DNA from: an uncultured Gemmatimonadales bacterium
GTDB taxonomy: Bacteria; Gemmatimonadota; Gemmatimonadetes; Gemmatimonadales; GWC2-71-9
Assembly (NCBI GenBank): GCA_963730185.1
Contig: CAVSQW010000015.1
Location: 64,001 to 128,000, forward strand
DNA length: 64,000 nt
Direction: 5' to 3'
Below, piece by piece: positions 3,634-19,972 of the stretch. The notes beneath the pieces are model-generated. The model was given only the letters and a program-made list of their open reading frames with translations. It was not told the DNA's origin and did not search any database. The stretch's first letter is position 1, and each line of letters opens with the position of its first letter. The position numbers were made by a program, and so were the translations under genes.

Positions 3634-4020
3634 TTACGTCTCGAAGAGAGGTATTCGGAGTGCTCGGGCGGCGGCGGCGAGGCGGGCGTCGTAGGTCGCC
3701 ATCCGGAGACGGCGCTCGCGGGCGCGGAGGAAGAGAATCGAGGCCAGGTGAAGCGCGTCGAGGGTCCGAACCGGCACCGGAAAGGGCTCGAGCCCCCGGG
3801 CCAGGACCGGCGGGGCCAGCTCGATCAGGGCAACGCGGCCGAGCAGGTCGCGGACGGCGTCGCCGTGAGACTTGGCCAGGCCGCGGGCGTTGACCCGGGT
3901 CCAGAGCTCGTACTCGAGCAGGCGGCTGGAGACGAGCGGCTCGTCCCAAAGGGTGGGGGGCGGCGTGCGGTCTTCGGCGAGCAGCTGGGCGAGGGCGACC
4001 GAGGTGTCGAGGTAGATCAC
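3634..4020 (-). CDS. vapC: PIN-domain (VapC-like) toxin
   Basis: Starts (V/M)IYLDTS; RTLDALHLAS and TYDARL PIN motifs; GTG start overlaps the antitoxin stop (GTGA). Confidence 0.9.
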   Translation of the reverse strand: MIYLDTSVALAQLLAEDRTPPPTLWDEPLVSSRLLEYELWTRVNARGLAKSHGDAVRDLLGRVALIELAPPVLARGLEPFPVPVRTLDALHLASILFLRARERRLRMATYDARLAAAARALRIPLFET

Positions 4021-4307
4021 CGGTCGCCGCGGTCTTGGTCCAGCTCGTCGAGGAGGGAAGCGAGGGGGGCCACGGGCTGGCGGGGTGGCGGCTCCCGCAC
4101 GGCCAGGAGCGGCGGCGTGAGCCATCCCTCGCGAACGGCGTCGGCCAGGAGCGCGTCCTGGAGCGACCCGCTCCGCCCGGGCCGAGGCGGGACCAGCTCG
4201 GCGACCACCCGGTCACGGCTGGTAACCAGGACGGTCTCGCCGTTCTGGGCCAGGCGGACGTACTCCGCCAGCCGGTTCTTGAGCACCTTGAGTCCCACGA
4301 CGACCAT
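4017..4307 (-). CDS. Phd/YefM-family antitoxin
   Basis: 'VGLKVLKNRLAEYVRLAQNGETVLVTSRDRVVAELVP' is typical Phd/YefM; directly upstream of the PIN gene. Confidence 0.9.
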   Translation of the reverse strand: MVVVGLKVLKNRLAEYVRLAQNGETVLVTSRDRVVAELVPPRPGRSGSLQDALLADAVREGWLTPPLLAVREPPPRQPVAPLASLLDELDQDRGDR

Positions 4308-4450: not shown

Positions 4451-4547
4451 TCCCGTGTCGTTGCCGGCATCCCGGCTGGGTGAGGACTCGGCTTGATGTG
4501 GGGGTGTGCGTGGTGGGGATGTCGCGGGGGCCTGGGATCGGTAACCA

Positions 4548-4740
4548 CTGGTTAACCACAGAGGGCACAGAGGGCACAGAGGAACAGCCACAACGATAGG
4601 ATACAACGACAATCGCTCAATCCAGGTCCTCCGCGGACTCTGCGACCTGTGCGGTGAATTCTGCTGTGGTTGCCGTTGTTGTTGCTGTTCCCCCCTAGTT
4701 GCCGTTCTCTGTGTCCTCTGTGCCCTCTGTGGTTGACCAG
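4548..4740. repeat. Palindromic REPIN-like element with 9-mer-repeat arms
   Basis: Left arm ctggttaaccacagagggcacagagggcacagagg (4548-4582) pairs with ctctgtgtcctctgtgccctctgtggttgaccag (4707-4740); GTT-rich interior. Confidence 0.8.
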
Positions 4741-4803
4741 TTGTTGCGGAGCCCAACCAGCCGACGGCTGCGGACGAGGCACGTCGTGACCCGGATTGGG
4801 CTC

Positions 4804-4832
4804 TTGCGCGGTGGCGCGGCGGCCCCTACCTA
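4804..4832 (+). promoter_or_regulatory. Putative sigma70-like promoter, conserved upstream of all four lipoprotein copies
   Basis: TTGCGC-17 nt-TACCTA, then GGAG before the ATG; the same block recurs near 6880, 9760 and 11829. The -10 match is imperfect. Confidence 0.35.
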
Positions 4833-4860
4833 TGGGACGATCCCCAGTCTGGAGTCCCCG

Positions 4861-6117
4861 ATGCCCCAGTTGGCGCGGTTTCCTGGGTCGTGGCTCGTGG
4901 TGCTGGCGGCCGCCGCCTGCACCGGGAGCACCGAGATCGTCACGCCGCCGCCTCCGCCGGCGAGCGGGTTCACGCTGCGATTCGTGCCGGAGCCGGAGGA
5001 CGGGGCGACGGCGGCGGCGCTGGGATGGGGAAGCGGGTTACCGGGGTTGGCGGTGACGCTGACGCCGTCGGACTCGAGCCAGCCGGCGCGGACCTTCACG
5101 AGCGAAGGCGACGGGATGGTGGCGATCCCGGACCTGGTGGCGGGGGACTACATCGTGGAGGCGAGCCGGTGGCTAACGGCGGGGGAGCGGGCGGAGCTGG
5201 CGAGCGGGGACGATGGGGACGGGTTCGCGACCCGGACGGTGCTCCGAACGGGAACGGGGGTGGGCAGTACGACGATCGCGGTGCCGGCGAGCCGGCGGCG
5301 GTCGCTAGTGATCAGTGAGTGGGCGTTCAACCCGGGGCAGACCCCTGGTCGTGGCGGGTACGATTTTGGCGGCTTTCTGGAACTCTACAACAACTCGGAC
5401 ACCACGCTGTTCCTCGATGGCATGGTCGTGGCGCGGGGACTGGATCACGAGCTGGACTATCCTCTTTATCCGTGTGGCGGCGAGTATCACACGTTCAGTG
5501 CCGACGCAAGAGGTATTTGGACGCTCGGATACCAGGTCTTTCCCGGTGCCGGCCATGACTATCCGATCCTTCCTGGCCACGACATCGTGATTGCCACTGA
5601 TGCCATCGACCATCGACCCTTCTATCCCGGGGCAATGGATCTCAGTCATGCAGATTTTGAGTTCGTCGGCGCCGCGGACCCCGACAATCCTGCGGTTCCC
5701 AACATGGTGAACACGGGGTATGACCGCGACTTGCAGGGGCATGGCCTCTTTTGGCAGGACTTGGGGGCGATCGCCGTGGTGGCGATGCCGCTCGACACGG
5801 CCGCCCTGACGACGGCGGTATACCCCGGCACCAGCACATTCGCGTTCCCACGAATCCCGGGCGATAAGGTCCTCGATGTTGTTGCCATGAGGGCAGTCCG
5901 CGACTATGGCTACGCGTTGTGTCCTTCCATCCTGAATCCGCAATTCGATCGCGAACCGTTTGTGGGGCGCGGTGCAGACGTGGTGGCCGAATTTCTCTAT
6001 TCGGTATCACGGCGCGCCGCCGACCTGCCCAACGGCGGCCGGCCGATCCTACGAGACACGAGAAGCAGTGATGCCGACCTGGTACGAACCATACGAACGC
6101 CGGGGGTCGTCCCATAG
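4861..6117 (+). CDS. DUF4876-like lipoprotein, cassette 1 (418 aa)
   Basis: Lipobox LAAAAC; LVISEW..FLELYNNSDTTLFLDG, ATDAIDH, DLSHADFEF and DNPAVPNM resemble DUF4876 proteins. Confidence 0.8.
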   Translation: MPQLARFPGSWLVVLAAAACTGSTEIVTPPPPPASGFTLRFVPEPEDGATAAALGWGSGLPGLAVTLTPSDSSQPARTFTSEGDGMVAIPDLVAGDYIVEASRWLTAGERAELASGDDGDGFATRTVLRTGTGVGSTTIAVPASRRRSLVISEWAFNPGQTPGRGGYDFGGFLELYNNSDTTLFLDGMVVARGLDHELDYPLYPCGGEYHTFSADARGIWTLGYQVFPGAGHDYPILPGHDIVIATDAIDHRPFYPGAMDLSHADFEFVGAADPDNPAVPNMVNTGYDRDLQGHGLFWQDLGAIAVVAMPLDTAALTTAVYPGTSTFAFPRIPGDKVLDVVAMRAVRDYGYALCPSILNPQFDREPFVGRGADVVAEFLYSVSRRAADLPNGGRPILRDTRSSDADLVRTIRTPGVVP

Positions 6118-6125
6118 GTTGCCTT

Positions 6126-6158
6126 GGGGACGGCGCTCCGCTGGGGCGTGCCGTCCCC
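6126..6158. terminator. GC-rich hairpin between convergent stop codons (possible bidirectional terminator)
   Basis: ggggacggc...gccgtcccc inverted repeat; no clear U-tract. Confidence 0.45.
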
Positions 6159-6170
6159 GCCGTTCAGGAC

Positions 6171-6419
6171 CTAGTAGAGGCAGCGGCAGCAACCGTTGGT
6201 CGAGCCCCACTGAGCCTCGACCTCCTCCCCGTGGACCGCCACGCACGCGGCCAAGCACGCTCCCTCGTCCGGCTGCTGCCCGAGCCAATTCCAGCCGTCG
6301 TCGGGGCAGGTCAGCGCATTGGCCGGCGTGGCAACCGCCACCACCCCTCCGAACGCCAACGCCCCCGCCACCGCCACTCCAAACCCCCATCCGCCGAGCC
6401 TCTTGATGCTGCGTGACAT
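6171..6419 (-). CDS. Secreted six-Cys defensin-like peptide 1 (82 aa precursor)
   Basis: SD AAGGAGGAG; signal peptide ending PANA; mature LTCPDDGWNWLGQQPDEGACLAACVAVHGEEVEAQWGSTNGCCRCLY; three paralogues in the window. Confidence 0.88.
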   Translation of the reverse strand: MSRSIKRLGGWGFGVAVAGALAFGGVVAVATPANALTCPDDGWNWLGQQPDEGACLAACVAVHGEEVEAQWGSTNGCCRCLY

Positions 6420-6472
6420 GATCTCCTCCTTGCTGCGGGAAGAACAGCGAGCACCGCCGCGACCCGAGGTGG

Positions 6473-6785
6473 TCACGGGCGGACGCCCGCGGAAGTAGTC
6501 GTGGGTGGGGTCGCCCCGGGGGCGACCGTGCCAGGGGGCGGTGGGTCCCACGCGCCGAAGTCCCCGCGCAGGGCGGCGTAGACCGAGTCGAGGACCGGCC
6601 CGGGCTCGAGCCGGCCGGTGTGGGCAAAGACCACCTCGCCCCAGTGGTTCAAGACCAGGGTCTGCGGCACGGCCCGGGCCCGGGCGAGCTGGGCGGTCTT
6701 CCAGTCGGGGAAGGTGGCCACTGCAAAGGCCAAGGCGTGTTCGGCCGCGGAGCACTGGAGGGTCCCGACCGAATCCAGGCCAAGC
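6473..6785 (-). pseudogene. 5'-truncated remnant of the thioredoxin-like gene (no CxxC, no start)
   Basis: LGLDS...FPDWKTAQLARARAVPQTLVLNHWGEVVF matches only the C-terminal half of 13511-14161. Confidence 0.75.
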
Positions 6786-6938
6786 TGCCGCCTGTCAAGC
6801 CGTGCCTCCTCCACGCCCGTTTCACGTGCTCGTCGGCGCGAGCCAGCCTGCGCACGGGCTCCGTGGCCCGGTTTGGGCTCTTGCGCGGTGGCGTGGCGGC
6901 CCCTACCTATGGGACGATCCCCAGTCTGGAGTCCCCCC

Positions 6939-8186
6939 ATGCCCCGCATGGCGCGGTTTCCTGGGTCGTGGCTCGTGCTGCTGGCGGCCGTCGCCTGCAC
7001 CGGGAGTACCGAGATCGTGACCCCGCCGCCCCCGCCGGCGAGCGGGTTCACGCTGCGATTCGTGCCGGAGCCGGAGGACGGGGCGACCGCCGCGGCGCTG
7101 GGGTGGGGGAGCGGGTTACCGGGGCTCACGGTGACGCTGACGCCGACGGACTCGAGCCGGCCGGCGCGGGCCTTCACGAGCGACGGGGACGGGACGGTGG
7201 CGATCCCGGACCTGGTGGCGGGGGACTACATCGTGGAGGCGAGCCGGTGGCTGACGGCGGCGGAGCGCGCGGAGCTGGCGAGTGGGGACGACGGGGACGG
7301 GTTCGCGACCCGGACGGTGCTCCGGACGGGGACGGGGGTGGGCAGTACGACGATCGGGGTGCCGGCCAGCCGGCGGCGGTCGCTCGTGATCAGTGAGTGG
7401 GCCTTCAACCATTTCGGGCTGCCGGGAATCGGCGCCTATACCTACGACGGCTTCCTCGAGCTCTACAACAACGCGGATACCACGATTTACCTGGATGGGA
7501 TGATCATCGCCGAGGGGTTTCGGAACGGTATCGCCGACACACCGGCCTTTCCCTGCGCCGAGAGTCGGCCGTTTCGGGACGATTCCGCCGGGGTGTGGAG
7601 CTGGGCGATGGAGCGCTTTCCCGGCACGGGGCACTCGTTTCCGATTCACCCAGGCGAAGTCAGGACGGTGGCAACGGATGCAATTGACCATCGGGCCCTG
7701 TTCCCCGACGCGCTGGACCTGAGTCACGCCGACTTCGAGTTCCGTGGCTCGGGCGACGTAGACAACCCGGCGGTGCCGGACCTGACGGACCTCAGCCTCG
7801 CACCGTACCCCGACGGTCATGGCCTGGAGTTCCAGGGACTTGCCATCATTGCGGTCGTGGCGCTGCCCCTCGATCCAGCCAACCTGGTGCGAGGCAACGC
7901 AGGCGGCGGGGAGTACGTGCGCATTCCCAAGGCGCGAATCATGGACATCCTGACGCTCCGCTCGAACTTCGCGACCGGTTTTACGGAGTGCTCCCCGCTC
8001 GTGGCGGCGGGGATCGACCGGGAGTGGTCGGATGTCCGAGGGACCGACTACCGAGATGAGCACCGGCACTCGGTTTCCCGGCGTGTTGCGGGGCAGGGCC
8101 TCAGCGGGCGGCCGCTGCTCTGGTACACCCGGAGCTCGTTCGCCGACTTCGAGCGGACCTTGCGGTCGCCCGGCGCAATACGGTGA
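6939..8186 (+). CDS. DUF4876-like lipoprotein, cassette 2 (415 aa, most divergent C-domain)
   Basis: N-terminal ~157 aa near-identical to copy 1; FLELYNNADTTIYLDG, DLSHADFEF, DNPAVPD. Confidence 0.8.
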   Translation: MPRMARFPGSWLVLLAAVACTGSTEIVTPPPPPASGFTLRFVPEPEDGATAAALGWGSGLPGLTVTLTPTDSSRPARAFTSDGDGTVAIPDLVAGDYIVEASRWLTAAERAELASGDDGDGFATRTVLRTGTGVGSTTIGVPASRRRSLVISEWAFNHFGLPGIGAYTYDGFLELYNNADTTIYLDGMIIAEGFRNGIADTPAFPCAESRPFRDDSAGVWSWAMERFPGTGHSFPIHPGEVRTVATDAIDHRALFPDALDLSHADFEFRGSGDVDNPAVPDLTDLSLAPYPDGHGLEFQGLAIIAVVALPLDPANLVRGNAGGGEYVRIPKARIMDILTLRSNFATGFTECSPLVAAGIDREWSDVRGTDYRDEHRHSVSRRVAGQGLSGRPLLWYTRSSFADFERTLRSPGAIR

Positions 8187-8270
8187 CCCTGAGTCTCTGG
8201 TAGCAACACCCTCAGGCCCCGGCTTCACGGGCGCGAGGGGCCCGGCGCGTGGCCGAGCCCCTCCGGCGCC

Positions 8271-8517
8271 TCAGAAGTAGCAGGTGCAGCAACCCTGCTG
8301 CGTGTACCGGACCTGCACGAGTGTGGGATGCAGCGCGTAGCACGCGTCCCAGCAGTCGTTGTAGGACGGCTGGTATCCCAGCCAGTTCCACCCCGTCGTC
8401 CGCGCAGGACATGGCATTGGCCGGCTTGGCGACCGCCAGCAACCCTCCGAACGCCAACGCCCCGGCCACCGCCAGCCCGAACCCCCATCCGCCGATCTTC
8501 TTCACGCTGCGTGACAT
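8271..8517 (-). CDS. Secreted six-Cys peptide 2, with a +1 frameshift in a G4 run (~8391-8394), probably a sequencing error
   Basis: Removing one G gives MSRSVKKIGGWGFGLAVAGALAFGGLLAVAKPANA-MSCADDGWNWLGYQPSYNDCWDACYALHPTLVQVRYTQQGCCTCYF*. Confidence 0.8.
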
Positions 8518-8567
8518 GATGTCATCCTGACTTGAAAGACGGCAGGCACCGCCGCGACCCGAAGTGG

Positions 8568-9219
8568 TCACGGCCGGATGCCCGCGGAAGGAGTCGGACG
8601 GGGTCGGGAACGTCCGGCCGCCGAGTCGGTGGGCGGCGGGTCCCACGCTCCGAAGTCGCCTCGGAGGGCGGCGTAGACCGAGTCGAGGCCTGGCCCGGGC
8701 TCGAGCCGGCCGGTGTGGGCAAAGACGACCTCGCCCCAGTGGTTCAGGACCAGGGTCTGGGGCACGGCGCGGGCCCGGGCGAGCTGGGCGGTCTTCCAGT
8801 CGGGGAAGGTGGCCACCGGGTAAGTCAGAGCGTGCTCGGCGGCGTAGTCCCGGACCCGTGGGAGCGAGTCCAGCCCAAGGCCAATCACCCCAACGAGGGG
8901 CCGGGCGGCGCGAGTCGACTCGGCCAGGGCCGCCCAGACCGGCAAGGTGGCCCGACAGTAGGGGCAGGTGGTGGTGAAGACGAAGACGAGCTGCCGGCCG
9001 GCGGTGTCGGCGAAGGCGCCGACGGTGACGGAATCGCCGGCGAGGGTCTTGGTCCGGAAGGTCGGCAGAGCGTAACCGCGATATGGAAGCGCCGGCTTTG
9101 GCCGTGAGCTCCAGGTAGGCCCGATTCAGCGCGACCTGCCGGCGGGCCAGCAGCACGACCAGGCCTGAGGCGACGAGCAGGGTGCCGCGCAGGAGGGCGG
9201 GAATCGATCGGGTTGCCAT
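8568..9219 (-). CDS. Membrane-anchored thioredoxin-like (TlpA/redoxin) protein with a +1 frameshift near 9090
   Basis: Collinear with 13511-14161 but one base longer (652 vs 651 nt); FTTTCPYC is retained. Confidence 0.75.
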
Positions 9220-9817
9220 CGCGACGCTCGTGAGGTGGAGGGCCCCTCCACGATAACACGCGCCGGCTCCCGCCATAGAGCGCCAAGCGAGCCAGAAATG
9301 GTACCGGTTCAGGCCATGAGAGCCCCGGTGACGGAAAGGCGGGCATAGAGTCATTCGGCCCCATTGAGGCGTCGAGCGGATTCCGGTTATCCTGAGACGG
9401 ATACCTCGGACCTGGTGCCTATTTCGGATCAGTCGTTGTCGAAAGGTCCGCGGCACCTCGATGAGGCGCCGACCAGATCGTTGCCTTGCTAGAGACCTGA
9501 CCTCAGCAGGTTCGCGACCTGATCCGGGTCGGCTTCCACGATGCGCGACCGGCCGGTGGCGAGGCCGCCAGCTCGATGGTCAGAGCGCAGCGGCGGCAGA
9601 CGCTTCACCGCAGACCGAGCGTCGGGTCGGGGGAGCCTCGTCGAGGAAGGCGTGGGCAATGCCGCCGTCTGTCACTCCGTGCCTCCTTCGTACCTAGTTC
9701 GCACGTGCTCCTCCCCACGAGCCAGCCCTCGCACGGGCTCCGTGGCCCGGTTTGGGCTCTTGCGCCGTGGCGCGGCGACCCCTACCTATGGGACGATCCC
9801 CAGTATGGAGTCCCCCC

Positions 9818-11074
9818 ATGTCCCTAATCGCGCGGTGTCCTGGGTCCTGGCTCGTACTGCTGGCGGCCGTCGCCTGCACCGGGAGCACCGAGATCGTGAC
9901 GCCGCCGCCCCCGCCGGCGAGCGGGTTCACGCTGCGATTCGTGCCGGAGCCGGAGGACGGGGCGACCGCCGCGGCGCTGGGGTGGGGGAGCGGGCTACCG
10001 GGGCTGGCGGTGACCCTGACGCCGGCGGACTCGAGCCGGCCGGCGCGGGCCTTCACGAGCGAAGGGGACGGGACGGTGGCGATCCCGGACCTGGTGGCGG
10101 GGGACTACATCGTGGAGGCGAGCCGGTGGCTGACGGCGGCGGAGCGGGCGGAGCTGGCGGGCGGGGACGATGGGGACGGGTTCGCGACCCGGACGGTGCT
10201 CCGAACGGGGACGGGGGTGGGCAGTACGACGATCGCGGTGCCGGCCAGCCGGCGGCGGTCGCTGGTGATCAGCGAGTGGGCCTTCAATGTCGGGCAAACG
10301 CCCGGTCTCGGCGGCTACACCAACGGCGGCTTTCTCGAACTCTACAACAATGCCGACACGACGGTGTTCCTCGACGGCGTTGTTGTAGTGAAGGGCTTGG
10401 ACCAGGAGTTCGAATCGGCGGCCTTCCCGTGTTCTGCGTTCCGTCAGTACGCGAGTGATGCTGCAGGAATCTGGAGCCTTGCCTATCAAGTGTTTCCTGG
10501 TAAGGGCCGCGATTACCCTCTGGCGCCTGGGCACGTGGTCGTAGTTGCCACCGACGCCATCGATCATGGTGCGTTCTACCCAGCCGGCCTCGACCTCCGA
10601 TCGGCAGACTTCGAATTTGTCGGGACGAGTGATGCTGATAATCCGGCGGTGCCGAATATGGTAAACACTGGGTACGATCGTGACCTTGCGGGCCACGGCC
10701 TCGAGTGGGCGGAGCTTGGCGCGGTTGTTGCCGTTGCGAGACCGTTCGATACGACGGGCTTGGTCAGGGCGGTGTTCCCGGGTACGAGTACATTCGCCCA
10801 CCCCAGGGTTCCGACAAGTGCGGTGCTGGACGCTATCGCTATTCGGTCCAACTATGATCCGAGTCGCGGCGAGTGTCCCGACATCGTTAGTCCGCAGTTC
10901 GATCGGAACCCGTTTCGGGGGCGAGGCCGCGACCTGCCGATGGAGTTTCAGTACTCCGTATCGCGACGTACGATGCCCATCGAGATTGAGGGCCATGCAA
11001 TCCTACAGGACACCCGGGCCGGCAACGCAGACCTTGTCCGAAGTCCGAGGACCCCTGGCGTGATCCCGCAGTGA
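9818..11074 (+). CDS. DUF4876-like lipoprotein, cassette 3 (418 aa)
   Basis: Same conserved N-terminal half and lipobox LAAVAC; FLELYNNADTTVFLDG, ADFEF, DNPAVPNM. Confidence 0.8.
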   Translation: MSLIARCPGSWLVLLAAVACTGSTEIVTPPPPPASGFTLRFVPEPEDGATAAALGWGSGLPGLAVTLTPADSSRPARAFTSEGDGTVAIPDLVAGDYIVEASRWLTAAERAELAGGDDGDGFATRTVLRTGTGVGSTTIAVPASRRRSLVISEWAFNVGQTPGLGGYTNGGFLELYNNADTTVFLDGVVVVKGLDQEFESAAFPCSAFRQYASDAAGIWSLAYQVFPGKGRDYPLAPGHVVVVATDAIDHGAFYPAGLDLRSADFEFVGTSDADNPAVPNMVNTGYDRDLAGHGLEWAELGAVVAVARPFDTTGLVRAVFPGTSTFAHPRVPTSAVLDAIAIRSNYDPSRGECPDIVSPQFDRNPFRGRGRDLPMEFQYSVSRRTMPIEIEGHAILQDTRAGNADLVRSPRTPGVIPQ

Positions 11075-11118
11075 CCGCGAGGTGACCTGCGGCCACCCCG
11101 CGGCGGTTCAGGCGGTCT

Positions 11119-11367
11119 CTAGTACAGGCAGCGGCAGCAGCCGTTGGTGGACCCCCACTGTGCCACGACGTCTGGGCCGTGAATGCTGGAGCAGACGTCG
11201 TAGCATACGCTCTGAGATGGCTGCTGCCCTACCCAGTTCCACCCGTCATCCTGGCAGTTCAGCGCATTGGCCGGCGTGGCAACCGCCACCACCCCTCCGA
11301 ACGCCAACGCCCCCGCCACCGCCACTCCAAACCCCCATCCGCCGAGCCTCTTGATGCTGCGTGACAT
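11119..11367 (-). CDS. Secreted six-Cys defensin-like peptide 3 (82 aa precursor)
   Basis: SD AAGGAGGAG; leader identical to peptide 1; mature LNCQDDGWNWVGQQPSQSVCYDVCSSIHGPDVVAQWGSTNGCCRCLY. Confidence 0.88.
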   Translation of the reverse strand: MSRSIKRLGGWGFGVAVAGALAFGGVVAVATPANALNCQDDGWNWVGQQPSQSVCYDVCSSIHGPDVVAQWGSTNGCCRCLY

Positions 11368-11420
11368 GATCTCCTCCTTGCTGCGGGAAGAACAGCGAGC
11401 ACCGCCGCGACCCGAGGTGG

Positions 11421-11733
11421 TCACGGGCGGACGCCCGCGGAAGTAGTCGTGGGTGGGGTCGCCCCCGGGGCGACCGTGCCAGGGGGCGGTGGGTCCCACG
11501 CGCCGACGTCCCCGCGCAGGGCCGCGTAGACCGAGTCGAGGACCGGCCCGGGCTCGAGCCGGCCGGTGTGGGCAAAGACGACCTCGCCCCAGTGGTTCAA
11601 GACCAGGGTCTGCGGCACGGCCCGGGCCCGAGCGAGCTGGGCCGTCTTCCAGTCGGGGAAGCTGGCCACCGCAAAGGCCAAGGCGTGCTCGGCGGCGTAG
11701 CGCCGGACGGCCCCGACCGAATCCAGGCCAAGC
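11421..11733 (-). pseudogene. 5'-truncated remnant of the thioredoxin-like gene
   Basis: Same breakpoint and near-identical sequence to 6473-6785. Confidence 0.75.
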
Positions 11734-11886
11734 CGCCGCCTGTCAAGCCGTGCCTCCTCCACACCCGTTTCACGTGCTCGTGGGCGCGAGCCAGCCTGCG
11801 CACGGGCTCCGTGGCCCGGATTGGGCTCTTGCGCGTTGCCGCGCCGGCCCCTACCTATGGGACGATCCCCAGTCTGGAGTCCCCCC

Positions 11887-13143
11887 ATGCCCCGCATGGC
11901 GCGATTTCCTGGGTCGTGGCTCGTGGTGCTGGCGGCCACCGCCTGCACCGGGAGCACCGAAATTGTCACCCCGCCGCCCCCGCCGGCGAGCGGGTTCACG
12001 TTGCGATTCGTGCCGGAGCCGGAGGACGGGGCGACGGCCGGGGCGCTCGGGTGGGGTAGCGGGTTACCGGGGCTGGCGGTGACGCTGACGCCGGCGGACT
12101 CGAGTCGGCCGGCGCGGGCCTTCACGAGCGAAGGGGACGGGACGGTGGCGATCCCGGACCTGGTGGCGGGGGACTACATCGTGGAGGCGAGCCGGTGGCT
12201 GACGGCGGCGGAGCGGGCGGAGCTGGCGGGCGGGGACGATGGGGACGGGTTCGCGACCCGGACGGTGCTCCGGACGGGGACGGGGGTGGGCAGTACGACG
12301 ATCGGGGTGCCGGCCAGCCGGCGGCGGTCGCTCGTGATCAGTGAGTGGGCGTTCAACGTGGGCTCCACGCCGGGTCTAGGTGGGTATTACACCGGCGGCT
12401 TCCTCGAGCTCTACAACAACAGTGACACGACCATCTATCTCGATGGCATGGTGGTGGCGCGAGGCCTCAACCTCGAGTTGGACTATCCGCTCTATCCCTG
12501 CAACGGGCCATACTACGCGTTCACGGCCGACCCGGCCGGTATCTGGACCCTAGGGTATCAAGTCTTTCCGGGGACCGGCCACGACTACGCCATCACGGCG
12601 GGCCAGGCTATCGTGATCGCGACGGACGCGATCGACCACCGGCCATTCTATCCAGGGGCGCTCGACCTGAGTCACGCGGATTTTGAGTTCGCTGGCAGCG
12701 CGGATCCGGACAACCCCTCCGTCCCCAACATGGTGAACACAGGATACGATCGCGACCTGTCGGGACATGGGCTGTTCTGGCAGGACCTTGGTGCGATCGC
12801 CGTGGTTGCGTTGCCCCTCGACACGACATCGCTGGTAAAGGCCATCTACCCTGGCCCTGGCACGTTCGCCCATCCGCGGATCCCTCGATCGAGGATTCTC
12901 GATGTCGTGGCGATGCGTGCGAGCCAGAGCTTTGACTATCCGCCATGCGCGACGATCATCAACCCAGAGTTCGATCACGAACCATTCCGGGGGCGGGGGG
13001 GAGATGTGGCGGCCGAGTTCCTGTATTCGGTGTCGAGACGGCCCACGGGCCTCCTCAGCGGTGGGCACCCAATTCTCCAGGATACCAGGACGGGAGAGGC
13101 GGATCTCCTTCGAACTGCCCGAACCCCGGGGCTGGTGCCATAG
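11887..13143 (+). CDS. DUF4876-like lipoprotein, cassette 4 (418 aa)
   Basis: Lipobox LAATAC; C-domain closest to copy 1 (ELDYPLYPC, GIWTLGYQVFPG, GHGLFWQDLGAIAVVA). Confidence 0.8.
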   Translation: MPRMARFPGSWLVVLAATACTGSTEIVTPPPPPASGFTLRFVPEPEDGATAGALGWGSGLPGLAVTLTPADSSRPARAFTSEGDGTVAIPDLVAGDYIVEASRWLTAAERAELAGGDDGDGFATRTVLRTGTGVGSTTIGVPASRRRSLVISEWAFNVGSTPGLGGYYTGGFLELYNNSDTTIYLDGMVVARGLNLELDYPLYPCNGPYYAFTADPAGIWTLGYQVFPGTGHDYAITAGQAIVIATDAIDHRPFYPGALDLSHADFEFAGSADPDNPSVPNMVNTGYDRDLSGHGLFWQDLGAIAVVALPLDTTSLVKAIYPGPGTFAHPRIPRSRILDVVAMRASQSFDYPPCATIINPEFDHEPFRGRGGDVAAEFLYSVSRRPTGLLSGGHPILQDTRTGEADLLRTARTPGLVP

Positions 13144-13211
13144 AGATCACAGAGGAGAAGCACCGGGCCGACCTGATGGGGTTCCGGCCGGCTCGGCGCT
13201 CTACTCGGAAA

Positions 13212-13460
13212 TCAGAAGAGGCAACGGCAGCAGCCGTTGGTCGACCCCCACTGCGACTCCACGTCCGGGTCATGGACAGCGACGCACGCTGCGTGACACG
13301 TTGCTGCGTCCGGCTGCTGCCCGAGCCAATTCCAGCCGTCGTCGGGGCAGGTCAGCGCATTGGCCGGCGTGGCAACCGCCACCACCCCTCCGAACGCCAG
13401 CGCCCCCGCCACCGCCAACCCGAACCCCCATCCGCCGATTTTCGTCATGCTGCGTGACAT
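13212..13460 (-). CDS. Secreted six-Cys defensin-like peptide 4 (82 aa precursor)
   Basis: SD AGGAGG; mature LTCPDDGWNWLGQQPDAATCHAACVAVHDPDVESQWGSTNGCCRCLF. Confidence 0.88.
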   Translation of the reverse strand: MSRSMTKIGGWGFGLAVAGALAFGGVVAVATPANALTCPDDGWNWLGQQPDAATCHAACVAVHDPDVESQWGSTNGCCRCLF

Positions 13461-13510
13461 GATGTCCTCCTGACTTGAAAGACGGCAGGCGCCACCGCGA
13501 CCCGAGGTAG

Positions 13511-14161
13511 TCACGGTCGGACGCCCGCGGAAGTAGTCGTACGCGCTTGGGGACGCCTGGCCGCCGAGTCGGCGGGCGGCGGATCCCACGCTCCGAAGTC
13601 GCCCCGCAGGGCGGCGTAGACCGAGTCGAGCACCGGCCCCGGTTCCAGCCGGCCGGTGCGGGCAAAGACGATCTCGCCCCAGTGGTTCAGGACCAGGGTC
13701 TGGGGCACGGCGCGGGCCCGGGCGAGCTGGGCGGTTTTCCAGTCAGGGAAGGTGGCCACCGGGTAGGTCAGGGCGTGCTCAGCCGCGTAGCGCTGGACCT
13801 TCCCGAGTGAATCCAGGCCGAGACCGAGGATCGGCGTCGAAGGCCAGCCGGCCCGGGTCGAGTCGGCCAGCGCGGCCCAGACCGGCAGGGTGGCGCGGCA
13901 GTAGGGACAGGTGGTGGTGAAGACGAAGACCAGTTGGCGGGCCGCGGTGTCGGCCAAGGCGCCGACGGTGGCCGAATCGCCGGCCAGCGTCGCAGCCCGG
14001 AAGGTCGGCAGAGCGTAGCCTCGATAGGGAAGGCCGGCTTTGGCCTTGAGCTCCAGGTACGCCCGATTCAGCGTCACCTGCCGGCGGGCCAGCACCACGA
14101 CCAGGCCGGAGGCGACGAGCAGGGCGCCGCCCAGGAGGGCGGAAATCGATCGGGTTGCCAT
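13511..14161 (-). CDS. Membrane-anchored thioredoxin-like (TlpA/redoxin) disulfide oxidoreductase, intact (216 aa)
   Basis: N-terminal TM segment, LPTFRAATLAG, LVFVFTTTCPYC active site, cis-Pro motif VPQTLVL. Confidence 0.85.
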   Translation of the reverse strand: MATRSISALLGGALLVASGLVVVLARRQVTLNRAYLELKAKAGLPYRGYALPTFRAATLAGDSATVGALADTAARQLVFVFTTTCPYCRATLPVWAALADSTRAGWPSTPILGLGLDSLGKVQRYAAEHALTYPVATFPDWKTAQLARARAVPQTLVLNHWGEIVFARTGRLEPGPVLDSVYAALRGDFGAWDPPPADSAARRPQARTTTSAGVRP

Positions 14162-14499
14162 CGCGACGCTCGTGAGGGGGAGGGCCCCTCCACGATAACA
14201 CGCGCCGCCTCCTGCCATAGAGCGCCAAGCGAGCCAGAAATGGTACCGGTTCAGGCCACCAGAGCCCCGATGACGGGAAGTCGGGCATAGGGTCGTTCGG
14301 CCCCATTGAGGCGTCGAGCGGACGCCGGTTATGCTGAGACGGATACCTCGGACCTGGTGCCTATTTCGGATCAGTCGTTGTCGAAAATCCCGCGCCACCT
14401 CGACGAGGCGGCCGACCAAGTCGTTGCCTCCCTGGAGCCCCTGCCCCAGGAGGTGCGTGACTTGATCCGGGTTGCTGGTGGCGGCGTTTCTCCTCATCT

Positions 14500-14610
14500 T
14501 TGAGCGGGTCACGGTCGAGCATGCCGCCGATGGAGCGGGGTTCGGCCGGGCCGCGACCCTTCGCCATCACATGAAAGCCCACTTCCGCCGACTGCCGTCG
14601 GCCCTCCGCG
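14500..14610 (+). pseudogene. Remnant of an AraC-family C-terminal HTH, in frame with the receptor
   Basis: 'VTVEHAADGAGFGRAATLRHHMKAHFRRLPSALR' resembles the GlxA/FtrA-type terminal HTH. Confidence 0.5.
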
Positions 14611-17432
14611 TCGGAGGCACGGCCGCGTGGCGCGACCTGCTTCGACAGCTGCCTCGGCTGGGCCGCCGCGGTACGCTGGCGGCGCTCGCCTGCGTCATGC
14701 TGGGCCGCGAGGCGCGGGCCCAGGCGGCCGAGGGCGGAGCGGTGATCGCCGGCCGGGTCACCGACGCGGTGACCGACGCGCCGCTCGCCGGGGCCACGGT
14801 GGCGCTGGAGGGCGGCGCGCTGGCCGCGACCAGCGGGGCCGACGGGCGCTACCGGCTGGCGGGGGCGCCGCCTGGTCCGGCGGTGCTCCGGGTGGTCCGG
14901 ATCGGCTACGCGCCGGTTCGCCGGCCGCTGACGGTGCCGCTCTCGGGCACGGTCACGGTGGACGTGGGGCTGGCCCGGAGCGCCCTCAACCTGCCGAACC
15001 TGGTGGTGACCGCCGATCCGGCGGGACGGGCCCGGGGCGAGCTGGGAACGGCGTCGGTGATCGGGAGCGACGCGATCCGGAACCAGACCGCGGCCAGCCT
15101 GGCCGGGGTGCTGGAGCTGGTGCCCGGCACGACCCTCCAGCCGCCCGGGCTCGACGGGGTCCAGCAGTTCTCGCTCCGGTCGGTCCCGATCTCGACCGGC
15201 GGCGGTGCCACCGGCCCGAACGCCCTGGGCCCCTCGGCCCAGAGCCTGGCGTCGTTCGGGACCCAGATCGTGCTGGACGGGGTGCCGGTCTCCAACAACG
15301 CCAACCTCCAGTCGCTAGGTGCCCGTGGCGAGCTAAGCTTCGCCTCGGCGGCCGGCGGCGGGATCGACCTCCGCCGGATCCCGGCGGCCACCCTGGAACG
15401 GGTCGAGGTGATCCGGGGCGTGCCCTCGGCCCGGTTCGGCGATCTGACCCAGGGCGTGGTGCTGGTGGACACCCGGGCCGGCGTGGTGCCGCCCGAGGCC
15501 CGGCTCCGTTTCGACGCCCGGACGGTCGAGGGGACCCTGCTGGGCGGCGCCCGGCTCTTCCCGGGCCAGACCGGCACCGCGAGCGTGAACCTGGCCCGGA
15601 CCCGGCTGGCGCCCGGCACCCGGGACGACGTGGGCTCCCGGATCTCGGGGCAGCTGGCCCACCGGTTCGCCTCCGACCGGCTGACCCTCGACACCCGGAT
15701 CGACGCCTTCCAGGTGCTTCAAGACGAGCCGGCCACGCCGGTCTTCCCCGACGTCGCGGCCCGGAGCCGGGACAACGGGCTCCGGGTGTCGGAGCGGGCC
15801 CGCTACCGGCTGGGGCGGTCGAGCGGGCTCGAGTGGACGGCGGCCTTCGAGGGCGGCCGGCAGCGGTCGTTCACCCAGGCGCCCCGGCTCCGGGGCGCGA
15901 TGCCCTTCACCAACCGGCTCACCGAGGGGACCCAGGACGGCAAGTTCATCGGCGGGGTGTACGTGGCCCGGGTGGACGTGGACGGCGATCCCCGCCAGGT
16001 CTACTCGCGGCTGGAGCTGACCGCGCCGGCCAGGTTCGCCGGGATGGACCACCTGACCCGCACCGGGTTCGAGCTCCGCCGGGAATGGAACGGCGGGCCC
16101 GGGGTCCAGTTCGACGTGGAGTTTCCGCCGCAGGTGGAGTTCAACGGGGTGCAGGGCTACGACCGGCCCCGCCGGTTCGACGCGATCCCGGCGCTGGTGA
16201 CCAGCGCGCTCTATCTGGACGACCGGATGACCCGGGAGCTGGGCGGCACGGTGGTCAACCTCCAGGCCGGTCTCCGGTTGGAGCTGCTGCACGACGGGAG
16301 CACCTGGGCGTCGGGCGTGCGGGACGCGGTGCTGGGCCCCCGGCTGCAGCTGGAAGTGGCCCCGGCCGAGCGGGTCCGGTTTCGGGCGGGGGTGGGGCGG
16401 GTCGCGAAGGTGCCCTCGCTGGCGGAGCTCTTTCCCGGGGCGCAGTACTACGACCTGGTCAACTTCAACTACTACGCCAACGATCCGGCCGAGCGCCGGG
16501 CCATCCTGACCACCCGGATCCTGGACCGGACCAACCCCGACCTCCGGATGATGCGGGCCGACAAGGCCGAGGCGGGCGTCGAGGTGGACCTGGGCGGGGG
16601 CGGGCAGGTGGCGCTGGTGGGATACCTGGACCGGATCCGGAACGGGGTCGGGATCCGCGAGCTGCCGACCTTTCTGCTCCGCGACCGCTACGCCGTGGAC
16701 AGCGCCACCATCGGGACCGGCCGGCCCCCCGACGTGCTGTTGCCGCCCGCGGCCCAGGACACGGTTCCCACCCTGATCGACCAGCCGGCCAACAACCTGG
16801 ATCTCCGGAGCGAGGGGCTCGAGCTGACGGCCATCCTCCCGGAGATCCGCCCGCTCAAGACCCGGATCGACGTCCAGGGCGCCTGGGCCTGGAGCCGGCT
16901 CTACGACGCCGGGGTCCAGTTCAACAGCTCGTTCACCGACTTCCAGCTGACCGAGCACATTCCCCGGGCGCCCTACTGGCAGGCCCTGACCCGGAAGGGG
17001 GAGCGCCTGCTGATCACCACCCGGCTGATCCACCAGCAGCCCAAGGCGGGCCTGGTGATCACCGGGACGGTGCAGGTGACGGTCCGGGAGCTCCGCCAGG
17101 ACGTGGGGGGCACCGACACGCTGTCGTTCGCCGGGTACATCACCCGGGCCGGCGAGCTGGTGCCGGTGGCGCCGGCCGACCGGGCGCTGCCCCAGTACCA
17201 GGATCTCCGCATCGCGCGAACCGGGCTGATCGACCCGCAGAAGGCGTCGCCCGACTGGCTCTTCAGTCTCCAGGTGAGCAAGACCCTGCCGCTCGACGGG
17301 CGGCTGTCTTTCTACGCCTACAACGCGTTCGACCGGATCGGGAGCTACGGGGGGCGGACCACGGTGCCGCGGCTCTATGCGCCGGTGCGGTTCGGGCTCG
17401 AGGTGTCGATGCCGTTGCCGGGCGCCCGTTAG
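14571..17432 (+). CDS. TonB-dependent receptor with N-terminal carboxypeptidase-regulatory-like domain (start uncertain)
   Basis: Signal ending ARA-Q; IAGRVTDAVTDAPLAGATV; plug motifs GTQIVLDGVPVSNNANLQ and GIDLRRIPAATLERVEVIRGVPSARFGDLTQG; terminal FGLEVS strand. Confidence 0.92.
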   Translation: MKAHFRRLPSALRVGGTAAWRDLLRQLPRLGRRGTLAALACVMLGREARAQAAEGGAVIAGRVTDAVTDAPLAGATVALEGGALAATSGADGRYRLAGAPPGPAVLRVVRIGYAPVRRPLTVPLSGTVTVDVGLARSALNLPNLVVTADPAGRARGELGTASVIGSDAIRNQTAASLAGVLELVPGTTLQPPGLDGVQQFSLRSVPISTGGGATGPNALGPSAQSLASFGTQIVLDGVPVSNNANLQSLGARGELSFASAAGGGIDLRRIPAATLERVEVIRGVPSARFGDLTQGVVLVDTRAGVVPPEARLRFDARTVEGTLLGGARLFPGQTGTASVNLARTRLAPGTRDDVGSRISGQLAHRFASDRLTLDTRIDAFQVLQDEPATPVFPDVAARSRDNGLRVSERARYRLGRSSGLEWTAAFEGGRQRSFTQAPRLRGAMPFTNRLTEGTQDGKFIGGVYVARVDVDGDPRQVYSRLELTAPARFAGMDHLTRTGFELRREWNGGPGVQFDVEFPPQVEFNGVQGYDRPRRFDAIPALVTSALYLDDRMTRELGGTVVNLQAGLRLELLHDGSTWASGVRDAVLGPRLQLEVAPAERVRFRAGVGRVAKVPSLAELFPGAQYYDLVNFNYYANDPAERRAILTTRILDRTNPDLRMMRADKAEAGVEVDLGGGGQVALVGYLDRIRNGVGIRELPTFLLRDRYAVDSATIGTGRPPDVLLPPAAQDTVPTLIDQPANNLDLRSEGLELTAILPEIRPLKTRIDVQGAWAWSRLYDAGVQFNSSFTDFQLTEHIPRAPYWQALTRKGERLLITTRLIHQQPKAGLVITGTVQVTVRELRQDVGGTDTLSFAGYITRAGELVPVAPADRALPQYQDLRIARTGLIDPQKASPDWLFSLQVSKTLPLDGRLSFYAYNAFDRIGSYGGRTTVPRLYAPVRFGLEVSMPLPGAR

Positions 17433-17974
17433 GCGGGGTCGAGCAGGTGGCCGAGCGAGACGCCGAACGGATGCGCCGCCCCGGCAGGGCGCCACTCGAG
17501 CCGGTCGGTGACCGTGACCGGGAACCGGGCCTCGGGTGTCCAGACCTCCGCCAGGCGGCGATCGGGATCGATGATCCAGTAGAGCGGCACGCCCTGCGCC
17601 TGATAGAGGCGGCGCTTGGTGAAGCGGTCGGCCCGGCGGGTGCTCGGGCTCACGACCTCGACGGCCAGGAGGAGCCGGCTCACATGAGCCCAGGCGGTGA
17701 TGCCGGCCTGCTCGGGCGGGACCACGAAGAGGTCCGGCTGGACCAGCAGGTCGGGCGCCCAGGAGAGGTCGGCCGGCGCGAAGAAGGCTCGCCCCACCGG
17801 CTCCCGCTGGAGGTAAGCATGAACCGCCGCGAAGAGCTCGCTCAGGACTCGCTGGTGCGCGGGACGGGGGGCGGGCGTCACCAAGAGCTCGCCGTGGACC
17901 GTCTCGTAGCGGTTGCCGTCGGCGGGCAAGGCGAGGACCATCTCGGCGGAATAGAACGGAGCGGACATGCCCAT
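17429..17974 (-). CDS. Uma2-family (PD-(D/E)XK) endonuclease-like protein
   Basis: LPADGNRYETVHGELLVTPAP..HQ, VQPDLFVV, LAVEVVSPST, K..Y..GVPLYWIIDP. Confidence 0.9.
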   Translation of the reverse strand: MGMSAPFYSAEMVLALPADGNRYETVHGELLVTPAPRPAHQRVLSELFAAVHAYLQREPVGRAFFAPADLSWAPDLLVQPDLFVVPPEQAGITAWAHVSRLLLAVEVVSPSTRRADRFTKRRLYQAQGVPLYWIIDPDRRLAEVWTPEARFPVTVTDRLEWRPAGAAHPFGVSLGHLLDPA

Positions 17975-18013
17975 AAGCTCGGCTCGGCTGGGGGGAAAAG
18001 GCAAGGGCACGAC

Positions 18014-19678
18014 ATGACCGCAAGCTGGTCAGGGTGGGCCGCGAGAACACAACCAAAAAAGCGCATAGCGGCGCCGGTGATTGCCGGCCTGGCCGTCGCC
18101 TGGCTCGGGCTCGGCGGACCGCTCGCCGCCCAGTCGATCGGTCTGGCGCCCGAGCACGACCTGCCGGCCTGGCTCGACCGGTGGAGCGTGCTGGCGCCCC
18201 GGGCCGATCTGCCCCGGCACTTTCCCACCGCCGGTTCGGCGCTCCCGGCGGGGCTCTTTCCGGCGACCACCATCGGGCTCTTCTGGACGGCGGCCAACCC
18301 GGCCGGTCTGGCTGGGGCGGTGGACAGCGCCTGGACCGAGTTCCGGGCCGCGGCGGCGGGCAGCCGGGGTGCGTTCCGGCGGCCGCTCGATCCGGGGGGC
18401 ACGCGGCTTCGGCAGATATCGGCGACCTCGTGGCGACCGCTGACCGACCGAGTCACCATGCTGGGCCGGGTGGTGCTCGACCAGGAGCGGTTCGATCCCG
18501 GGAGCCAGGCCGACGAGAGCGAGCCCTACCCGACCAGCCCGTTCGTCACCACCGACAGCAGCACCAGCCCCACCCGCCGGACCCGAGCCCGGCTGGAGGG
18601 CGTGGCGGCCTGGCGGCTCGGGGCCTGGGCGTTAGGCGCCGACCTGGGCTACGAGACCAACGAGCGGCGGACCATCGAGGCCGGGTTCGCCCGACTGACC
18701 CGCCAGACGATGCCGGGCGTGGCGCTGGGGGTGACCCGGACCGCGGGCGGACTGACGGTCGGGCTGGTGGGCCGCTACCGGAACCGGGCCGAGACGATCG
18801 ACCTGACCGAGCGGGCCGCCGAGGGGCAGGTGGTGGACCTGGCCGGGTACCAGGGGGTGACGCCGATCAGTGTGAACCAGAGCTACTATCGGCGGATCGA
18901 CGAGGACGTCCCCTCGGCCAGCCTCGGCCTGAGCGGCGCGGGGCTGGGCGGCCGCTGGGTGGCGTTCGTCGAGGTGTCGCGCCTCCGCGAGCGGCGGACC
19001 CGGCAGCAGCAGGACCAGCCCGCCTACGACCGGTGGAACGCCGGCGCCTGGACCGCGGGCGCCGCCTACCAGCGCGGCCTGGGCCGCTCCGGCCGGTGGC
19101 GGCTGACCCTGGACGGCCGCTTCACCGCCCTCACCGGCGACGGCGACCTGGCGCTCGACTCGGCCGGCACGGTCTTCACCGCGACCGAGCGGGCCTTCGA
19201 GGGGCGGGCCGAGCTCCGCCGGCTCCGCTCGGCGGGCGGCTGGTCGGGGCTGATCGCGGTGAAGTCGCGCTACGAGAACCGGGTCCGGAACGACTCGATC
19301 GCGGTGATCGGATCGAAGATCCAGACCGCCGGCCTGGGCGTGGAGCTGGAGCTGGGCCACCCATTGGCCCCTGGCGTGGCATTCCTCGCCTCGGGCGGGC
19401 TGGTGAGTCAGGCGTCGAGCGCCGCGATCCCGGCGCCGCTGGTGCAAGGCGCCGTTTACCAGCGGCTGATCGCCCCGGAGCTCGACTTCTACGCCCGCGA
19501 CCTGACCCCCTGGTCGGCCGGCCTCGCGCTCCGCTGGCAGGCGAGTGCCCGAACCGCCCTCTGGCTGGCCGGGCACGCCGAGGGGGTGAGCCCCCGCGGT
19601 CCGATGGGGCCGACCGGCTACACCGGCTCGGCGGGGCGATCGGCGTCGAGTGTCGTGCTCGGGGTCGTGCTTCGCTGA
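18014..19678 (+). CDS. Outer-membrane beta-barrel protein, DUF6850-like (554 aa)
   Basis: Signal peptide ending PLAA-Q; NPAGL, GAFRRPLDP, PFVTTDS; amphipathic strands; lies next to the TBDR and DUF4876-like genes. Confidence 0.65.
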   Translation: MTASWSGWAARTQPKKRIAAPVIAGLAVAWLGLGGPLAAQSIGLAPEHDLPAWLDRWSVLAPRADLPRHFPTAGSALPAGLFPATTIGLFWTAANPAGLAGAVDSAWTEFRAAAAGSRGAFRRPLDPGGTRLRQISATSWRPLTDRVTMLGRVVLDQERFDPGSQADESEPYPTSPFVTTDSSTSPTRRTRARLEGVAAWRLGAWALGADLGYETNERRTIEAGFARLTRQTMPGVALGVTRTAGGLTVGLVGRYRNRAETIDLTERAAEGQVVDLAGYQGVTPISVNQSYYRRIDEDVPSASLGLSGAGLGGRWVAFVEVSRLRERRTRQQQDQPAYDRWNAGAWTAGAAYQRGLGRSGRWRLTLDGRFTALTGDGDLALDSAGTVFTATERAFEGRAELRRLRSAGGWSGLIAVKSRYENRVRNDSIAVIGSKIQTAGLGVELELGHPLAPGVAFLASGGLVSQASSAAIPAPLVQGAVYQRLIAPELDFYARDLTPWSAGLALRWQASARTALWLAGHAEGVSPRGPMGPTGYTGSAGRSASSVVLGVVLR

Positions 19679-19734
19679 CGTTCGTTCCGGTTGGGGGCGG
19701 TGTACTTGGCCAGGTTGGAGGTTGTGGCCGGGTG

Positions 19735-19972
19735 ATGGCAACCGCTTTACCGCAAAGGGCGCGGAGGACGCAGAGGAACAGCGTCGAGGGATCCTCCGCA
19801 CTCTATTGTCCTGACAGCCGGAGTCGTGGTGCTGGTGGTGGTGGTGGTGGTGGTGGTTGGTGGTGGTGGTTGTTGTTGTTGTTGTTGTTGTTGTTCCCCC
19901 TCTTGTGCTTTTTCCGTCCTCGATCAGTTCCTCTGCGATCTCTGCGTCCTCTGCGGTTAATGCTGTTGCCAA
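19735..19972. repeat. Palindromic REPIN-like element enclosing a (GGT)n(GTT)n microsatellite
   Basis: Arms 19735-19776 and 19929-19972 are imperfect inverted copies of the accgcagaggacgcagag family; trinucleotide tract at ~19826-19895. Confidence 0.8.

Follow-up and report, generated by a model that had tools for sequence, protein, structure and literature searches.

Candidate private-key peptides of predicted defensin-like fold linked to lidded TonB-dependent transporters in Gemmatimonadota

Positions 4,548 to 19,972 of a 64,000-nucleotide stretch of contig CAVSQW010000015.1 (the window), from an uncultured Gemmatimonadales bacterium whose genome has a GC content of 70%, hold an array of four tandem units. 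Each contains a DUF4876 lipoprotein (hereafter a lid), a small acidic six-cysteine peptide, and redoxin sequence, and the units are followed by one TonB-dependent receptor (TBDR) and one DUF6850 β-barrel. We consider it slightly better than an even bet that the array belongs to a family of hundreds of polymorphic, defensin-fold keys for lidded TonB transporters, in which key–lid pairs are shuffled by recombination and strains occur as producers, multi-lid pirates, and producer-only forms. In the version we favor, with a rough probability of 0.42, the peptides would be secreted as private keys and recaptured by their cognate lids for TonB-driven uptake, probably together with a nutrient.

Peptide and lid genes are mostly linked wherever the peptide occurs. 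Among 60 relatives, eight credible peptide matches were found in five genomes, and all eight lie beside a DUF4876 gene; weak matches in genomes G044, G046, and G050 (E 0.005–0.008, two with stop codons) were left out of the counts. In 400 Gemmatimonadota genomes, where few candidates were scored per genome and all counts are lower bounds, at least 15 genomes carry the peptide, at least 28 carry a lid, and at least 13 carry both, and 20 of the 24 peptide matches outside the window have a lid at a distance of no more than 600 bp. The linkage survey proposed by the first-pass annotation thus came out in favor of linkage, with a lid present in 13 of 15 peptide genomes. A wider set, biased upward because it was partly fetched through the lids, comprises 41 peptide genes at 33 loci in 24 genomes. 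Here a lid lies no more than 600 bp from 35 of the 41 peptide genes (no more than 400 bp from 30), a redoxin lies within 2.5 kb of 38, and a TBDR and a barrel are present at 26 and 25 of the 33 loci. The tail-to-tail arrangement of the window is not a rule, as only 16 of the 35 close pairs are convergent, with 18 on the same strand and one divergent. Gene order also differs among loci, with a single-strand run at L037 and rearrangements at L039, L064, and L066. Arrays recur at L033, L046, L069, L145, and L156. Lids are often more numerous than peptides, reaching two or three per peptide at L045, L064, L142, and L148.

The two halves of the system can also be found apart. Genomes G162 and G157 contain redoxin and peptide genes, and no lid or barrel was found in them. 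Lids, TBDR, and barrel are present in G143, G428 (five lids on one contig), and G287, where no peptide was found at E ≤ 0.5; redoxin was likewise not found in G143 and G428. These one-module genomes, G162 and G157 included, are 95–96% complete, with incomplete assembly remaining a caveat. The system splits into a producer module of redoxin plus peptide and a receptor module of lids, TBDR, and barrel, like producers and pirates. Because redoxin tracks the peptide in G162, G157, G143, and G428, we assign it to peptide production, where its most likely role is disulfide folding of the peptide. The earlier proposal that each lid is paired with its own peptide at one TBDR stands in part: linkage elsewhere, the model of lid 4 with peptide 4, and the co-travel described below speak for it, while the loci with two or three lids per peptide and the unpaired genomes show that a strict one-to-one scheme is not general.

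Structure prediction makes binding between lid and peptide quite probable. Models of lid 4 (residues 35–418) with mature peptide 4 gave interface scores (ipSAE) of 0.80, 0.80, and 0.72, and the best of three controls gave 0.02; 116 of 157 solved complexes attain the mark used, as do 2 of 215 mismatched pairs, rates that are only rough when one's own alignments are used. At least 93% of contacts are shared between runs, each with 88–91 contacts and a partner pLDDT of at least 86, and PDB searches returned no solved complex of either the lid or the peptide family. All 39 contacting lid residues fall in the C-domain, where interface columns are variable (2.85 versus 1.66 bits across 110 lids); the modelled contacts include lid 4 residues 194–203, 321–325, and 345–351, set against peptide residues 16–39. 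Among the four lid paralogs, identity is 120–126 of 128 residues in the N-domain and runs from 5/36 to 25/39 at the interface. On the peptide, residues 16–47 form the lid-binding part, and the free face is conserved among the paralogs, with nonsynonymous divergence (pN) of 0–0.12 against 0.23–0.38 on the lid-binding face, as expected for an address plus a payload. The peptide face varies in step with the face of the neighboring lid (r = 0.24, p = 0.0005 in a partial Mantel test on 28 pairs, controlled for N-domain and leader), and a leader control gave r = 0.04.

The variable parts of the two genes also appear to be exchanged jointly. Synonymous divergence (pS) among the window lids is 0.08–0.16 in the N-domains versus a saturated 0.70–0.82 in the C-domains. 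Peptide leaders 1 and 3 are identical (105/105 nt), and the redoxin remnants of units 1 and 3 are 95% alike. Mature peptide 1 is closer to peptide 4 (38/47) than to peptide 3 (31/47), and lid 1 is likewise closer to lid 4. In phylogenetic trees the window N-domains form a tight clade with three database lids (support 100/97), and C-domains 1, 3, and 4 group with the lid of another species (99/99), apart from C-domain 2; lids L039 and P0161, in which the split motif was not found, were left out. Holding the seven-row N-domain clade together in the C-domain tree was rejected by the approximately unbiased (AU) test (p-AU 0.009), for a group picked after viewing the trees. On the independent contig L155, the flank matches unit 1 at 95% identity and unit 3 at 94%, but the peptide (29/46 against 18–20) and the lid end (110/183 against 85–87) are of the unit-2 type. 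The tree conflict and this unit-2 pair in unit-1-type flanks indicate that lid C-domain and mature peptide are exchanged as one cassette between near-identical flanks.

The peptides themselves belong to a sizable family. Searching 1.84 billion representative sequences with a profile of 13 peptides returned 224 clusters at E ≤ 0.001. Among the 150 clusters listed, 141 are 70–95 residues long; 124 of these have eight cysteines, 12 have six, and 133 are net negative (median −3). An organism name was attached to two of ten clusters looked up, both from Gemmatimonadota, Longimicrobium being counted in that phylum. Eight-cysteine members show plant-defensin spacing and a C-C-x-C end. The two cysteines absent from the window peptides are lost jointly (both present in 126, both absent in 18, and discordant in 1 of the 145 rows of alignment A4), which implies that they pair with each other. 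Across these 145 members invariance is limited to five cysteines; Gly12 and the sixth cysteine come close to it. Divergent subfamilies with other cysteine spacings, such as C-x-C near the start or CC in the helix, fill the slot between redoxin and lid at L069, L118, L120, L121, L122, L136, L137, and L142.

The family is predicted to adopt a cysteine-stabilized αβ (CS-αβ), defensin-like fold. An AlphaFold2 model of peptide 4 (pLDDT 96.4) has a strand-helix-strand-strand order, with C20 and C24 (CxxxC) in helix 17–28 and C43 and C45 (CxC) in the last strand, 42–46; the third disulfide and GxC γ-core of cis-defensins are missing from the six-cysteine window peptides. A profile search of the PDB gave individually weak matches (best E 0.015); of the 44 with E ≤ 10, 40 bear names of plant defensins or of scorpion CS-αβ peptides. 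Fold comparison of the peptide 4 model was also weak, with Z scores up to 3.7 (a PAN domain) and 3.6 for the plant defensin 1ti5 (root-mean-square deviation 1.8 over 37 aligned residues), and Foldseek returned no match at E ≤ 0.001. Neither Pfam nor NCBIfam has a family above cut-off; gamma-thionin reached just E 0.07–0.2 for two eight-cysteine relatives. The ESM Atlas gave no usable peptide match, a result that bears neither on novelty nor on absence.

Each lid gene on the forward strand meets its reverse-strand peptide gene tail to tail, with redoxin sequence upstream of every peptide; lids and TBDR all lie on the forward strand with the peptide and redoxin genes interposed (Table 1). Profile checks proposed in the first-pass annotation placed its four lipoproteins in DUF4876 (39.8–46.6 bits, Pfam cut-off 27.9) and the gene at 18014–19678 in DUF6850 (50.9 bits, cut-off 27). 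One TBDR and one barrel do follow the four units as described there, with a Uma2-family gene in addition between them. Four secreted six-cysteine peptides of 82 residues had been counted, a length that holds for units 1, 3, and 4; peptide 2 (81 residues) is not an intact frame. Their acidity is confirmed, with net charges of the mature peptides of −6, −3, −3, and −5 for units 1–4. A CPYC thioredoxin-like protein, assigned earlier to every unit, exists in units 2 and 4 only, units 1 and 3 retaining 103-codon 3′ remnants that lack CXXC.

Table 1 Features of the array, in window coordinates.
Feature	Position	Strand	Evidence
Lid 1 (DUF4876 lipoprotein, 418 aa; N-domain conserved, C-domain variable)	4861..6117	+	Pfam DUF4876 46.6 bits; Cys20 as lipoprotein signal, by eye
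Peptide 1 (leader of 35 aa, Sec-type by eye, and 47-aa mature six-Cys part, net −6)	6171..6419	−	
Redoxin 3′ remnant, unit 1 (103 codons; lacks CXXC and a membrane anchor)	6473..6784	−	81% to residues 115–217 of redoxin 4
Lid 2 (DUF4876 lipoprotein, 415 aa; C-domain most divergent)	6939..8186	+	Pfam 42.9 bits; tree
Peptide 2 (six-Cys; frame broken, one extra base near 8394)	8271..8517	−	93%-identical contig lacks that base
Redoxin 2 (CPYC; frameshifted by a single extra base near 9091)	8568..9219	−	Pfam Redoxin 33.5 bits, above cut-off; related contig lacks that base
Lid 3 (DUF4876 lipoprotein, 418 aa)	9818..11074	+	Pfam 39.8 bits
Peptide 3 (six-Cys, net −3)	11119..11367	−	
Redoxin 3′ remnant, unit 3 (103 codons, no CXXC)	11421..11732	−	
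Lid 4 (DUF4876 lipoprotein, 418 aa; predicted binder of peptide 4)	11887..13143	+	Pfam 42.9 bits; complex model
Peptide 4 (six-Cys, net −5; modelled as strand-helix-strand-strand)	13212..13460	−	pLDDT 96.4
Redoxin 4 (intact; CPYC, with a hydrophobic anchor at the N-terminus)	13511..14161	−	AhpC-TSA/Redoxin slightly below cut-off
AraC-type helix-turn-helix (HTH) remnant (first HTH missing; second half in frame with TBDR)	14306..14600	+	HTH_18 E 0.047
TBDR, non-SusC; start codon uncertain (14472, 14478, or 14571)	14472..17432	+	Pfam Plug, barrel, and CarboxypepD_reg above cut-off
Uma2-family gene, between TBDR and barrel; outside conserved set	17429..17974	−	Pfam Uma2 105.5 bits
DUF6850 outer-membrane β-barrel	18014..19678	+	Pfam 50.9 bits, cut-off 27

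The array is genuine and not an assembly artefact, the outcome that the first-pass annotation had named as fatal to its proposal. Pieces of all four lid variable regions recur at 97–100% identity in contigs from four independent metagenome runs, the remnant junction at 6370–6925 is spanned by one independent contig, and the remnant-peptide-lid layout is repeated on contig L155 and again on L156; no single independent contig piece covers the whole array. The one-base frameshifts in peptide 2 and redoxin 2 are probably assembly errors, since related contigs lack both extra bases and a nearby efflux operon has three more frameshifts. This CzcCBA-like heavy-metal efflux operon lies at 20060–25691 (−); czcA has two of these frameshifts and the adaptor gene has the third, which points to an indel-prone assembly. 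Ahead of the array are an AraC regulator (24–1130, +), a serpin with a lipoprotein-like start (1301–2554, +), an M48 peptidase (2616–3437, −), and a PIN/Phd toxin-antitoxin pair (3634–4307, −). The efflux genes, serpin, and M48 protease have no match in the fetched related loci and are not counted as parts; the Uma2-family gene gave no tblastn match there either. Palindromic repeats with low-complexity cores bound the interval at 4533–4755 and about 19720–19960, with similar stretches present on contigs C6, C7, and C12. A perfect TTGACA, possibly part of a promoter for peptides 1 and 3, stands immediately upstream of each redoxin remnant, at 6794–6799 (−) and 11742–11747 (−); a consensus scan made no call there, and promoter and terminator scans ran at chance level.

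In all four lids, Cys20 follows a hydrophobic run as a candidate lipoprotein signal, with a lipobox that is non-canonical by eye. The nearest solved relative of the lid is PDB 4q1z (E 5.5e-8), and the barrel found nothing relevant among PDB sequences. The TBDR lies outside the SusC family (TIGR04056, 38 bits against a cut-off of 368). Redoxin 4 scores far below cut-off against StoA, DsbE, and MauD. Three loci (L040 in G021, L041 in G006, and L127 in G342) have a second, more Bacteroidota-like TBDR and DUF4876 pair without peptide, redoxin, or matching barrel.

In the private-key mechanism that we favor, redoxin would fold the small, acidic, defensin-like peptides before their secretion, and the lids would be displayed on the cell surface, possibly through the DUF6850 barrel, which as a dedicated exporter would supply lipoprotein export outside Bacteroidota. 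Each peptide is predicted to be bound by the variable face of the neighboring lid, presumably with a preference for the cognate partner. The lid would then hand the peptide, probably loaded with a nutrient in short supply, for example a metal ion, to the TBDR for import, so that the window array would amount to four keys and four locks on one common transporter. Capture for benefit fits better than export, because producers retain a lid and a transporter of their own, and in non-producers the transporter persists with up to five lids.

Several observations weigh against this mechanism. The complex test also accepts near relatives of a true partner, as it did for 10 of 12 colicin pairs, so its result is silent on cognate preference. 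The variability of the lid interface is confounded by the difference between surface loops and core, and interface pN/pS is below 1 (0.35–0.83) with synonymous sites saturated. Kinship inflates the Mantel test, and adjacent genes can co-travel through linkage alone. The peptides have no conserved metal ligand, just cysteine and glycine being conserved across the 145 members, and no Fur-box-like site (at least 13 of 19 positions) was found in the window or in 12 of 15 related loci. Five queries and open reading frame listings found no cytoplasmic-membrane importer, reductase, or protease in the conserved set. Producer-only genomes such as G162 and G157 would gain nothing from a private good. 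Finally, known substrates of TonB-dependent transporters (TBDTs) with alternative lids are no larger than 1.4 kDa (10.1101/2023.03.17.533168), versus about 5 kDa for the peptide.

It is possible, though unlikely, that the peptide is instead a strain-specific signal for kin or density sensing, which lid and TBDR import or whose binding they transduce to a regulator, like the ligand-receptor pair SCR/SP11–SRK of plants. Ligand and receptor are linked, co-vary, and are swapped as cassettes, the peptide family has no conserved cargo site, and defensin-like ligands of plant receptors are among the weak fold matches (5gyy, Z 3.0; 5yah, Z 2.5). Regulators are also found at some loci. An HTH_18 domain above the Pfam cut-off is in frame ahead of the TBDR signal peptide at L036:6400-7413 (−) and L038:8632-9585 (−), ahead of a truncated TBDR start at L035:2173-3018 (−), and ahead of a DUF4876 lipoprotein in P0174. 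Whether this AraC HTH is a transcription factor freed by signal-peptide cleavage or reflects repeated loss of a stop codon is a question that such fusions raise. Genes for an extracytoplasmic function (ECF) sigma factor and a zf-HC2 anti-sigma factor adjoin the lid/TBDR loci in L123 (6020–7296) and L125 (1174–2459), and zf-HC2 proteins occur in L133 and L134. These regulators are, however, not conserved across loci, and the N-terminal domain of the TBDR is CarboxypepD_reg, a Pfam scan having found no STN domain. A strain with four different signals is harder to explain as a signaller, as are five-lid listeners without a signal.

We also doubt that the peptides act as narrow-spectrum bacteriocins, with the conserved TBDR as their entry point into relatives, each lid an immunity protein trapping its peptide, and extra lids orphan immunity genes. 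Tail-to-tail variable modules swapped between conserved flanks, together with surplus lids, do reproduce the layout of polymorphic toxin-immunity loci; the predicted fold is defensin-like, and in the model the lid would cover the variable face and leave the conserved face free. Nevertheless, a net negative charge is found in 133 of the 141 family members. G162 and G157, 95–96% complete, have a peptide and no lid was found in them, against the expectation that a producer is always immune, although the barrel is missing there as well. Receptor-only genomes retain the TBDR, the would-be entry route, and the lids are homologous to uptake lids rather than to known immunity proteins.

A resident role for the peptide, as a small subunit or plug of the lid acting as variable adaptor or assembly aid, or export of a lid-peptide complex by TBDR and barrel, strikes us as improbable. 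The large and confident predicted interface (88–91 contacts), the constant proximity of the genes, and the lack of another exporter in the locus would suit it. Lids, TBDR, and barrel nevertheless persist without peptide or redoxin, peptides occur without them in G162 and G157, and at several loci the lids outnumber the peptides. Ordinary tandem duplication of linked genes with no functional pairing, for which one could cite the two redoxin remnants, the frameshifted unit 2, and a co-travel obtainable from linkage alone, is very improbable given that linkage survives rearrangement across the sampled families, that the complex score is far above controls, and that flanks are homogenized while modules are old (pS 0.08–0.16 versus 0.70–0.82).

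Variable partners that are inherited and exchanged jointly, with orphan receptors or immunity genes, are familiar from pyoverdine/FpvA types, contact-dependent inhibition (CDI) and Rhs modules, class II microcins, and plant SCR/SRK, and HasA/HasR is one pairing of a metal scavenger with its TBDT. Exchange of the variable pair as one module is shared with class II microcins and other toxin-immunity pairs. Relative to all such polymorphic loci the protein families here differ throughout, and both partners are ribosomally made, predicted to be extracytoplasmic, and tied to one common transporter. Secreted proteinaceous metal scavengers with TBDT partners include TseZ/HmuR, TseM/MnoT, and TseF/FptA, according to the accessible text of PMC8602904. 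What the present system would have in common with them is a small protein that the cell itself secretes and that is encoded beside, or works together with, a TonB-dependent transporter; here secretion is predicted, and the TBDT is a candidate partner suggested by gene linkage. The known scavengers are type VI or type I secretion substrates with shown ligands, and a lid lipoprotein, polymorphic pairs, or a defensin fold are not described for them in that text (PMC8602904).

The receptor side resembles the non-SusC TBDTs of Bacteroidota that are lidded by DUF4876 proteins (BT1939/BT1938, BT3633/BT3632, PG1019-22), with a DUF4876 lipoprotein and non-SusC TBDR in common. The Bacteroidota proteins are predicted TBDT lids with an opening of about 20 Å and no known phenotype, and most diderms outside Bacteroidota may be without means to export such lipoproteins (10.1101/2023.03.17.533168). 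In the accessible part of an iron-limitation study, two Bacteroidota DUF4876 loci rank with the genes that change most strongly in the iron stimulon (PMC10434189). No ligand is known for those transporters and no self-made peptide or redoxin has been described with them, whereas here lids are multiplied, mosaic, peptide-paired, and outside Bacteroidota.

On the peptide side, the closest known kinds are bacterial cis-defensins (AdDLP, actifensin) and plant defensins, which share the CxxxC helix and CxC strand and, with eight-cysteine members, the plant-defensin spacing. The accessible text of Cardoso et al. lists 74 bacterial cis-defensins in classes I–V (PMC11561630), and the leader here resembles its myxobacterial class I/II leaders by eye. 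Our family differs from cis-defensins in its C-C-x-C end with an extra cysteine, its acidity, and the loss of one cysteine pair in the window peptides; by eye it also matches neither the class III pattern (first two cysteines two residues apart, no adjacent CC) nor that of class V (last cysteine after CxC), as given in that text. The same text contains no class with this cysteine pattern and no mention of Gemmat, TonB, neighbor, or genomic context (PMC11561630). A literature search on DUF4876, DUF6850, Gemmatimonad defensin-like peptides, and the combined system, with subscription journals and preprint supplements outside its scope, found no description. The parts come from three known kinds, joined in no known system that we found.

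If the proposed reading is true, the peptides would be the first ligand for DUF4876, an uncharacterized lid family, and would give the CS-αβ fold a job in bacteria, in self-recognition or private goods, other than killing. A signaling use of this fold would then be suggested to predate plants. The many natural pairs of a 5-kDa peptide and a 45-kDa receptor make specificity directly testable with synthetic peptides, and the locus provides a starting point for work on the unstudied DUF6850 barrel, which may export lipoproteins. Whether private goods, kin signal, or weapon, the system would represent a social trait in an abundant and little-cultured phylum.

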